Source of the DNA: Candidatus Zhuqueibacterota bacterium
GTDB taxonomy: Bacteria > BS750m-G25
Direction of reading: 5' to 3'
Length of the DNA: 64,000 bases
NCBI GenBank assembly: GCA_016783505.1
Contig: JADHWK010000008.1
Coordinates: forward strand, 627-64,626
Shown in pieces: positions 15,937-18,771 of this stretch. Under the pieces are notes generated by a model. The model was not told the DNA's origin and searched no databases. It worked only from the letters and a program-made list of their open reading frames with translations. Within the stretch, counting starts at the first letter, position 1, and the number at the start of each line of letters is the position of its first letter. The translations under genes were made by a program, and so were the position numbers.

Positions 15937-16143
15937 TTTGGAGTGCGTCAACCCCGTTAGATAATCATCTTGCAAGGTTAGGTAAATTAGACAGTTGTCA
16001 GTATCTAAGGGGTCAACCGTGTTGAAGCATAAAGCGACATCCCGAATGATCGGGACAGGTTGGTCGCTTTACTCCAAAGCATTAAATTGACACGATCAAT
16101 TCAATCAACAGTTCGGGTTTAACTTAACAGCAGGGTTAAAATT

Positions 16144-17889: not shown

Positions 17890-18348
17890 TTATGTTTTCT
17901 CCCTGACCTTCTGGAAAAACGACTTTAGCAACTCCTCGCATTCGCCTCTTAGCACCCCTGAAATGACGTTGGACCGATGGTTGAGGCGTCCATCCTGCAC
18001 AATATTATACTGGGAGGAACAGGCCCCGGCCTTGGGGTCTGGGGCGCCAAAAAAGACGTTTTCTATCCGGGCTAAGACCACAGCCCCGGCGCACATGGGG
18101 CAGGGTTCCAGGGTTACATAAAGGGAAGCCCCTTCCAATCGCCACGTTCCCAAAGTGTTCGCAGCAGCGGAAAGGGCGATCATCTCGGCATGGGCGGTGG
18201 GGTCCTGAAGGCGTTCGGTCATGTTGTGCCCCCGCCCGATGATTTTCTCCTGATGGACGACCACCGCCCCCACGGGGACTTCATCCTCCCGAAGGGCTTC
18301 TTTAGCCTCCTGAAGGGCTTTTGTCATCCACTTTTCGTGCTCATCCAT
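17890..18348 (-). CDS. tadA: tRNA adenosine(34) deaminase
   Basis: EVPVGAV, HAEM and [11 protein letters not shown] motifs. True start ATG18348; the track's upstream extension runs through tRNA genes. Confidence 0.95.
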
Positions 18349-18356
18349 AAAGGTAG

Positions 18357-18430
18357 TACGCCCGGAGGGACTCGAACCCCCAACCTTGTGGTCCGTAGCC
18401 ACACGCTCTATCCAATTGAGCCACGGGCGC
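18357..18430 (-). tRNA. tRNA-Arg(ACG)
   Basis: Cloverleaf with anticodon arm TGTGG-CTACGGA-CCACA and GTTCGAGTC. Confidence 0.95.
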
Positions 18431-18435
18431 ATAAG

Positions 18436-18506
18436 TAGCGCGTACGGGAATCGAACCCGTGTTATCCCGAAGTATCGGGATGTCATAGACCCCTGACGAA
18501 CGCGCC
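18436..18506 (-). pseudogene. Degenerate tRNA-Glu copy with the anticodon arm replaced by a palindrome
   Basis: Near-identical to 18536-18608 except that CCGGCGTGAGAGGCCGGC is replaced by TCCCGAAGTATCGGGAT and the D arm has small changes. Confidence 0.8.
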
Positions 18507-18532
18507 AAGAATTAATGAAAGGGTGGTGACTC

Positions 18533-18608
18533 TGGTAGCGCGTACGGGAATCGAACCCGTGTTACCGGCGTGAGAGGCCGGCGTCCTAGACCCCTAGACG
18601 AACGCGCC
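18533..18608 (-). tRNA. tRNA-Glu(CTC)
   Basis: Anticodon arm CCGGC-CTCTCAC-GCCGG, GTTCGATTC, CCA encoded. Confidence 0.95.
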
Positions 18609-18720
18609 ATTAATCATATAACTAAATGACAATTATTTATCAATTGTCTGGTTAAGTCACATAATGGCTTGAATTGAACAATATTGAGGAATAGAAAACC
18701 TCCCTAACTTTTGATTAGAG

Positions 18721-18771
18721 CCCGTGTTATCCCGAAGTATCGGGATGTCCTAGACCCCTAGATGAACGTGC
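18721..18771 (-). pseudogene. Truncated second tRNA-Glu copy with the same palindromic arm
   Basis: CCCGTGTTA-TCCCGAAGTATCGGGAT-GTCCTAGACCCCTAGATGAACGTGC; most of the T arm and the 3' acceptor strand are missing. Confidence 0.7.

Follow-up and report, generated by a model that had tools for sequence, protein, structure and literature searches.

Organization of the tRNA-Glu locus

The locus described here occupies the minus strand of the window (the whole 64,000-nucleotide stretch of DNA that was analysed) and consists of an intact tRNA-Glu(CTC) gene between two degenerate copies of itself, set in a series of tRNA genes that is followed by tadA. Read 5' to 3' on that strand, the gene order is tRNA-Gln, copyB, tRNA-Glu(CTC), copyA, tRNA-Arg and tadA. 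The features, in window coordinates, are as follows.

18981-18907, minus strand: tRNA-Gln(CTG), the upstream neighbour (ARAGORN and Rfam)
~18872-18837, minus strand: terminator-like hairpin and T-run after tRNA-Gln(CTG), read from the sequence
18816-18788, minus strand: putative promoter-like site TTGACT-17 nt-TAAATT just upstream of copyB, a consensus-scan match only
18771-18718, minus strand: copyB, a truncated pseudo-tRNA-Glu covering positions ~2-53, with the anticodon arm replaced by the palindrome (alignment)
18730-18745, no strand assigned: TCCCGA-AGTA-TCGGGA within copyB (pattern search)
18609-18717, minus strand: spacer of ~110 nt between copyB and the intact tRNA-Glu
18660-18632: second promoter-like site, inside the copyB/tRNA-Glu spacer (promoter scan)
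18608-18533, minus strand: intact tRNA-Glu(CTC) with encoded CCA (ARAGORN; Rfam tRNA, 61.1 bits)
Next, 26 nt: spacer between tRNA-Glu(CTC) and copyA
18506-18435, minus strand: copyA, a full-length pseudo-tRNA-Glu with positions 27-43 replaced by the palindrome (ARAGORN, alignment and fold)
18465-18480, no strand assigned: TCCCGA-AGTA-TCGGGA within copyA (pattern search)
18430-18356, minus strand: tRNA-Arg(ACG), downstream in the same operon, 5 nt past copyA (ARAGORN and Rfam)
17890-18349, minus strand: tadA, tRNA adenosine-34 deaminase (PF00383/PF14437 domains; its matches are named TadA by their sources)

The tadA gene directly follows tRNA-Arg(ACG) (window 17890-18430), and a single transcript of the two is probable; TadA deaminates A34 of tRNA-Arg(ACG). 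Besides TadA, the proteins encoded within ~4 kb of the locus are an EamA transporter, a cytidylyltransferase, a SpoIIE/GAF protein and an ABC ATPase, and no mobile-element gene was found within that distance. Searches of the copyB/tRNA-Glu spacer by blastx and blastn likewise returned no nuclease ORF or remnant. We considered and rejected an att duplication made by an integrase at a tRNA gene, given that there are no tyrosine integrase or island genes within ~4 kb and that the spacers measure just 26 and ~110 nt.

Replacement of the anticodon arm

In the alignment, both degenerate copies carry A+TCCCGATACTTCGGGA in place of the G26+CCGGCCTCTCACGCCGG (positions 27-43) of the intact gene, and the retained flanks, GGAC and TAACACGGG, bound the swap identically in copyA and copyB. 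The anticodon arm that was replaced is 17 nt long. Because the original Glu arm occurs only once in the window, even with 3 mismatches allowed, the swap is a replacement and not an insertion with a displaced arm. Over 39 nt, copyB is 97% identical to copyA; it breaks off within the T stem, and 3 substitutions fall in its acceptor and on the 5' side of its D stem. The palindrome loop is identical in copyA and copyB, so a single swap event took place, with duplication afterwards.

The remaining differences between copyA and the intact gene are few. Deletion of U13 together with G22U yields a 4-bp Watson-Crick D stem, G26 is A, and the CCA is missing. The fold is a complete cloverleaf (MFE -32.2 kcal/mol, z = -4.1) whose 'anticodon arm' is a 7-bp stem closed by a UACU tetraloop. 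ARAGORN reports 18435-18506 (minus strand) as 'tRNA-???' with a 2-nt anticodon, and copyA has no seven-nucleotide anticodon loop on a 5-bp stem of the kind that defines a tRNA. Among the three Glu copies, the intact gene alone passes the gathering threshold of the Rfam tRNA family (RF00005), which copyA fails, and the Rfam search over the window gave nothing but tRNAs at threshold.

These results largely agree with a first-pass annotation of the same DNA, made by a model from the letters alone. Its description of an intact tRNA-Glu(CTC) between two degenerate copies is borne out by ARAGORN, which places the gene at 18533-18608 (minus strand), and by the alignment, which shows both copies. Its claim of a hairpin-for-hairpin replacement at fixed boundaries holds as well, with the same flanks in both copies and the original arm found once in the window; the displaced arm that a simple insertion would have left nearby was found nowhere else in the window with up to 3 mismatches. 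The fuller copy does keep its acceptor and T arms, and its D arm too, and it sits in the tRNA operon behind a promoter-like site. The 5-bp stem with a 6-nt loop proposed for that copy, by contrast, is not what the thermodynamic fold gives.

Independent assemblies and a closely related strain

The TadA protein cluster served as an anchor for retrieving the Glu locus from other assemblies, and a metagenome scan with the patched arm as query was a second route. Four further independent assemblies contain the three-copy arrangement at 99.8-100% identity, namely L121, L122 and L123, which come from three ENA samples, and L125 (contig JACKQG010074545), which comes from another metagenome and has one private SNP, in the spacer. 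In L121 and L123, N gaps mark scaffold joins at the repeated tRNA sequence of the cluster. These gaps show that the assembler had difficulty there, and they favour the idea that the arrangement is an artefact of collapsed or chimeric repeats, a risk that the first-pass annotation had raised. We consider such an artefact extremely improbable. Five assemblies from different samples agree in order and sequence, so the arrangement is not a mis-assembly; moreover, L125 has its private spacer SNP, and the Glu copies differ from one another at several diagnostic positions.

A close relative, L124 (JGI 3300009150), is 98.5% identical over 2 kb, and its homology with the window is lost ~8 nt upstream of tRNA-Arg, with no copyA there. 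The Glu arrangement is thus both genuine and variable between close strains. The metagenome scan for the patched arm returned the same population only. As a separate observation, the tRNA-Arg(ACG) gene of L124 differs from that of the window (18356-18430) in having the anticodon stem CTTGG/CCAAG instead of TGTGG/CCACA, and its variable loop differs too. The remainder of the gene is identical, which looks like an arm-sized exchange in a working tRNA.

A palindrome dispersed through the genome

The incoming hairpin is the dispersed palindrome of this genome, as had been proposed. The window has 9 copies of TCCCGA-N4-TCGGGA, where 0.01 would be expected, and the 2.5-Mb assembly (60% complete) has 226. 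The spacer of the palindrome is nearly always 4 nt, with 0-10 copies for each other length, and 57 different 4-nt loops are found among the copies. A compensated variant, CCCCGA-N4-TCGGGG, is present in 52 copies, and the flanks of the palindrome are symmetric, YYNR on each side. Long open frames contain 19% of the copies and cover 86% of the genome, so the palindrome is scarce within them. Thirty other genomes have at most 8 copies each, and in a set of 400 diverse genomes, 116 have at least one copy, the top counts being 77, 42 and 26. One copy in the window (16040-16055) and another in the genome (C14:6356-6440) are modules of a larger repeat framed by TTTGGAGTG...CACTCCAAA. This frame also occurs in a Clostridia genome (L019), so that the larger element is cross-phylum too.

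To see what the palindrome displaces, its flanks were compared with paralogous sequences that are devoid of it, which gave 62 filled/empty pairs, about a dozen of them independent. In these pairs the palindrome replaces 0, 5, 7, 8, 11, 13, 14 or 36 nt, and none of them has a target duplication. Often it is the tip of a longer hairpin that has been replaced, as where AGAACCTTA-TCTTTAGA-TAGGTTCT corresponds to AGAACCTTA-[palindrome]-TAGGTTCT. An apical position on larger hairpins is favoured over random intergenic sites at p = 0.04, which is marginal. Plain insertion is seen in CAATCAG heptamer arrays. Such arrays occur at many sites, and the palindrome lies between units at C75:2086 and C13:5076, with empty matches on C3, C20, C23 and C36.

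Two candidate identities for the palindrome or its surroundings were set aside. In Flavobacterium, palindromes are inserted at the hairpin tip of the Rfam Flavo-1 motif; they are inserts in the motif at that locus, and the palindrome is not the Flavo-1 motif itself. A hammerhead-like reading of ...ACGA[palindrome]CGAAAC contexts found no support in Rfam.

Patched tRNA copies and small GIY-YIG genes in the same genome

Every tRNA was used as a BLAST query against the assembly, and the many partial copies found were then inspected. A Val pseudo-copy has exactly positions 27-43 replaced by TCCCGA-TTGCCA-TCGGGA, which has an N6 loop, and an Ala pseudo-copy has exactly the same positions replaced by a different hairpin, GTCCGAC-GTTGGCA-GTCGGAC. 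Other arms are affected in other families. Three Asp copies have positions 38-49 replaced, several Asn copies have replacements of the D arm and/or positions 38-48, and two Pro copies have a replaced T arm; the patched Asp, Asn and Pro copies do not preserve the cloverleaf. A loop inherited from the target would fit the Val, Ala, Asn and Asp cases, but not Glu, Pro or most of the filled/empty pairs.

The assembly has only four small GIY-YIG ORFs, each of 84-93 aa with PF01541 and no other domain; their coordinates are C5 38558-38812, C81 27073-27324, C81 39314-39511 and C85 50833-50555. They adjoin tRNA-Asp, tRNA-Ala, tRNA-Pro and tRNA-Asn, and each lies 17-50 nt from a patched pseudo-tRNA. 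At three of the four, the palindrome itself is 17-50 nt away, and the Ala ORF has the different hairpin. The order at the tRNA-Asp locus is patched copy, GIY-YIG ORF, intact gene and patched copy, a layout that equals that of the Glu locus, with the ORF where Glu has its copyB-side spacer. The best solved relatives of these ORFs are the UPF0213 proteins 1ZG2 and 1YWL, and SLX1, and NCBIfam holds no specific family for them.

The tRNA-Asn gene (C85, 48300-51800, outside the window) is an insertion hotspot. Four patched pseudo-copies are found there, two of them with a 33-nt T-loop insert. The hotspot also has a GIY-YIG ORF, a pair of small ORFs that resemble toxin-antitoxin genes, and an island in which an HTH gene and a UvrD-like helicase gene lie.

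Recurrence in other genomes and phyla

Public genomes were scanned for doublets, defined as palindrome pairs separated by 5-35 nt. At least 120 loci were found, and those listed span Bacteroidota, Chlorobi, Ignavibacteria, Cloacimonadota, Verrucomicrobiota, Chloroflexi, Acidobacteriota, Saccharibacteria and other phyla. Among the matches listed, a small GIY-YIG ORF lies within 100 nt of the doublet at 15 of 120, and a Y1 transposase is found at 1 of 120. At 13 loci among the matches listed, the palindrome directly adjoins tRNA fragments, most of which match the intact tRNA next to them at 100% identity. In the case of tRNA-Asn, the first palindrome stops just before the anticodon-loop TTAA in Flavobacteriales, Saccharibacteria and Bacteroidetes genomes.

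The tie between small GIY-YIG genes and tRNA genes was also evident from the side of the nuclease. A set of 23 diverse genomes supplied 40 small GIY-YIG ORFs, and 18 of these lie no more than 500 nt from a tRNA gene, where a rough estimate of chance gives fewer than one, and many of the 40 are near TCCCG...CGGGA-type hairpins. The link between gene and palindrome content is moderate: small GIY-YIG genes occur in 12 of 14 high-palindrome genomes and in 7 of 14 with zero palindromes, and two genomes with 42 and 20 palindrome copies have no such gene.

The most telling parallel to the Glu locus is found in an unrelated genome, G078, in which tRNA-Glu(TTC) is accompanied by three pseudo-copies with positions 27-43 replaced by TCCCGA-CTTG-TCGGGA or TCCCGA-CCTG-TCGGGA. 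The swap boundaries are those of the Glu locus described here (GGACA|...|), and GIY-YIG ORFs are adjacent. The first-pass annotation had suggested looking for the same swap in other tRNA copies and in related genomes, and the comparisons gave overwritten Asp, Asn, Val and Pro pseudo-copies and an Ala pseudo-copy with its different hairpin in this genome, and the identical tRNA-Glu swap in the unrelated G078. That annotation had also called the locus a rare record of how the palindrome spreads. This part does not stand, as the same overwriting affects four other tRNA families here and at least 13 loci in other phyla, and about a dozen filled/empty pairs of other repeats add to the evidence. Its account of the replacement and of the identity of the palindrome was therefore right, while its judgement of rarity was not. 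It also overlooked the context that accounts for the copies, small GIY-YIG (Ssn-like) nuclease cassettes at tRNA genes, of which patched pseudo-tRNAs of this kind are the hallmark.

Two further arrangements deserve mention as observations. In G212:C173 (L126), positions 372-458, a seemingly intact tRNA-Leu(CAG) has the palindrome TCCCGATTACTCGGGA as its variable arm, and the order is tRNA-Leu(CAG), GIY-YIG ORF and patched pseudo-copy. The hairpin may thus be tolerated inside a working class II tRNA. In an uncultured Bacteroidales sequence (L074, 1618-2545), at least 10 tandem units with a period of ~89 nt each consist of the first 28 nt of tRNA-Asn with the palindrome directly after, and an intact tRNA-Asn and GIY-YIG ORFs lie downstream.

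Interpretation and alternative explanations

We lean towards the view that the Glu copies are hairpin-patched pseudo-tRNAs of a tRNA-linked mini-GIY-YIG cassette whose nuclease gene is missing here, in which case the locus might be regarded as a relic. The unit would be a minimal single-domain GIY-YIG gene lodged at a tRNA gene, and would be selfish, widespread and largely undescribed. It would keep one working tRNA, framed by duplicated tRNA pieces in which an arm has been exchanged for TCCCGA-N4-TCGGGA. By analogy with the Ssn family (discussed below), the hairpin is most likely the recognition element of the nuclease, and we infer that the nuclease recognises it and drives the overwriting, and that the ORF was lost at the Glu locus. 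The patch might otherwise be the work, in trans, of a nuclease encoded at one of the four other loci. One swap event produced the patched arm, and duplication turned it into copyA and copyB. The hairpin has also spread alone to more than 200 sites in this genome, often over hairpin tips, with no target duplication and with a new 4-nt loop per site. Counting against the cassette are the empty spacer at the Glu locus, with neither ORF nor remnant, the failure of a published hairpin pattern (SRM, discussed below) to match the palindrome, the moderate strength of the link between palindrome load and small GIY-YIG genes, the marginal result for apical positions and a Y1 gene on contig C80 that is accompanied by palindrome-tipped hairpins.

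This last gene is the main argument for another reading, in which the palindrome would be REP-like, mobilised by a Y1 (RAYT-type) transposase, and would overwrite any dispensable hairpin; the pseudo-tRNAs would be permissive targets from ordinary duplications, and the GIY-YIG genes would be bystanders that create pseudo-tRNAs. The genome has three Y1 transposase genes, and the one on C80 (1950-2780, outside the window) has a AGAACCGA-[palindrome]-TACGGTTCT hairpin on either side. Neighbouring copies of this hairpin have the short tips TCTAAAGA and TCACTTTTAGTG in place of the palindrome. A REP-like family of at least 10 copies has the palindrome at the tip. We nevertheless judge this reading unlikely, given that palindrome doublets are accompanied by GIY-YIG ORFs far more often than by Y1 genes (15/120 versus 1/120 among the matches listed), that the flanks of the palindrome are devoid of the GTAG/CGTC tag, and that the hairpin pair around the C80 gene is directly oriented, where a REP/RAYT system has inverted copies. 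Very unlikely, in our opinion, is the proposal of the first-pass annotation that copyA is an anticodon-less tRNA mimic transcribed with the tRNA operon. As a functional tRNA-like RNA it would be co-transcribed with tRNA-Glu and tRNA-Arg and released by RNase P and 3' trimming, and it might act as a decoy or regulatory RNA, or as a signal for processing. The appeal of this reading is that the cloverleaf is perfect and better defined than that of the real tRNA (ensemble frequency 0.50 versus 0.09; z = -4.1), that the two D-arm changes compensate each other, and that copyA is part of a tRNA operon, with promoter-like sites upstream of it and tRNA-Arg 5 nt downstream. However, L124 has no copyA within flanks that are 98.5% identical, which disfavours a conserved function. 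Furthermore, copyB is a truncated copy, no cloverleaf remains in the patched pseudo-tRNAs of the Asp, Asn and Pro families, and copyA has no CCA and scores below the Rfam tRNA threshold.

More ambitious than the cassette, and in our opinion possible but doubtful, is the proposal of a mobile system with two parts, the hairpin and the minimal GIY-YIG nuclease, in which movement is 'structure for structure'. Recognition of the hairpin by the nuclease would take place in single-stranded DNA, and repair of the resulting breaks would copy the hairpin stem over other DNA hairpins, among them tRNA arms, REP tips, terminator tips and the variable arm of the seemingly working tRNA-Leu. Neither a transposase nor a target duplication would be involved, and the target's own loop would sometimes be kept. 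On this proposal tRNA genes would be the preferred home because every such gene has three or four hairpins and is a landing site both safe and conserved.

Taken with its parallels in this genome and in other phyla, the Glu locus shows an Ssn-like hairpin systematically replacing arms in duplicated tRNA genes. This points to selfish elements that reside in tRNA genes, lack a recombinase and form a widespread class. Such a class would explain many of the 'odd' pseudo-tRNAs and of the spurious tRNA calls met in annotated genomes. Since the tRNA arm is clearly the ancestral state, the swaps are also polarised examples of how a 16-bp repeat spreads. In practical terms, the concrete hairpin/nuclease pairs named here are candidate tools for cutting single-stranded DNA.

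Comparison with known systems

The SDR repeats of Nostoc, attributed to Elhai et al. in 2008, are reportedly mobile repeats of ~20 nt that nest in other repeats and hairpins without target duplication, and are said to occur also within heptamer arrays. To our knowledge, no nuclease partner or tRNA link has been described for them, and they differ from the palindrome in both sequence and phylum.

REP/REPIN elements and their RAYT transposases resemble the present case in that short intergenic palindromes are dispersed in hundreds of copies and have a hairpin-specific enzyme (PMC3116915, PMC3733652). They differ in that the palindrome has no GTAG/CGTC tag and in that its partner across phyla is a GIY-YIG protein and not a Y1 protein. 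The element described here is also smaller, and it overwrites other hairpins at their tips.

SegB and other free-standing GIY-YIG homing endonucleases of the tRNA cluster in T4-like phages share the placement of a nuclease among tRNA genes as a selfish insert (PMC2330249). However, Seg proteins have a DNA-binding domain, cut double-stranded DNA and are encoded by phage genes, and hairpin-patched tRNA duplicates are not among their features (PMC2330249). We therefore rejected a Seg-type endonuclease, of ~200 aa or more with a DNA-binding domain, as the identity of the present ORFs, which have 84-93 aa and the catalytic domain only.

The literature searched contains no description of GIY-YIG genes with tRNA pseudo-copies or of the palindrome, and the same is true for UPF0213/YhbQ. 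The Ssn nucleases of Neisseria are the sole relatives described so far, and a link to tRNA genes is absent from the literature searched. Ssn proteins are single-domain GIY-YIG nucleases of ~94 aa assigned to CDD family cd10448 (Chenal et al. 2025, PMC11893778). Each binds its own hairpin repeat (NTS in Neisseria, SRM elsewhere) in single-stranded DNA, its only substrate, and cuts beside it, leaving double-stranded DNA and RNA intact; the repeats occur in hundreds of copies and in a hairpin-gene-hairpin layout, and in Neisseria the Ssn proteins, with their hairpin repeats, are regulators of transformation (PMC11893778). The word 'tRNA' does not appear in the main text of that paper (PMC11893778).

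In both cases the nuclease is tiny (~85-94 aa), with no domain but GIY-YIG, and its gene has a short GC-rich hairpin with a TCCCG...CGGGA core on one side or both. The hairpin is present in hundreds of copies, mostly outside genes, and in many phyla. This genome has nucleases of the single-domain GIY-YIG size, none of them at the Glu locus, and a multi-copy flanking hairpin, but the published SRM pattern does not match the palindrome. With its directional HGTCWY flank, that pattern gave 21 matches versus 18 in shuffled sequence, none of which overlaps the palindrome, and the GTCAT-type directional flank of the Neisseria repeat is absent at the palindromes here. As a side observation, the only convincing SRM-pattern matches in the genome are two copies of TGTCATTCCCGC-N-GCGGGAATCTAT (C24 ~17275 and C26 ~21871; minus-strand counts), which resemble the Neisseria NTS/dRS3 repeat. 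The hairpin of the present elements is instead a symmetric, perfect palindrome of 16-18 bp with a free 4-nt loop and no directional flank. The cassettes described here also differ in that they sit at tRNA genes and duplicate them, and their hairpin replaces tRNA arms.
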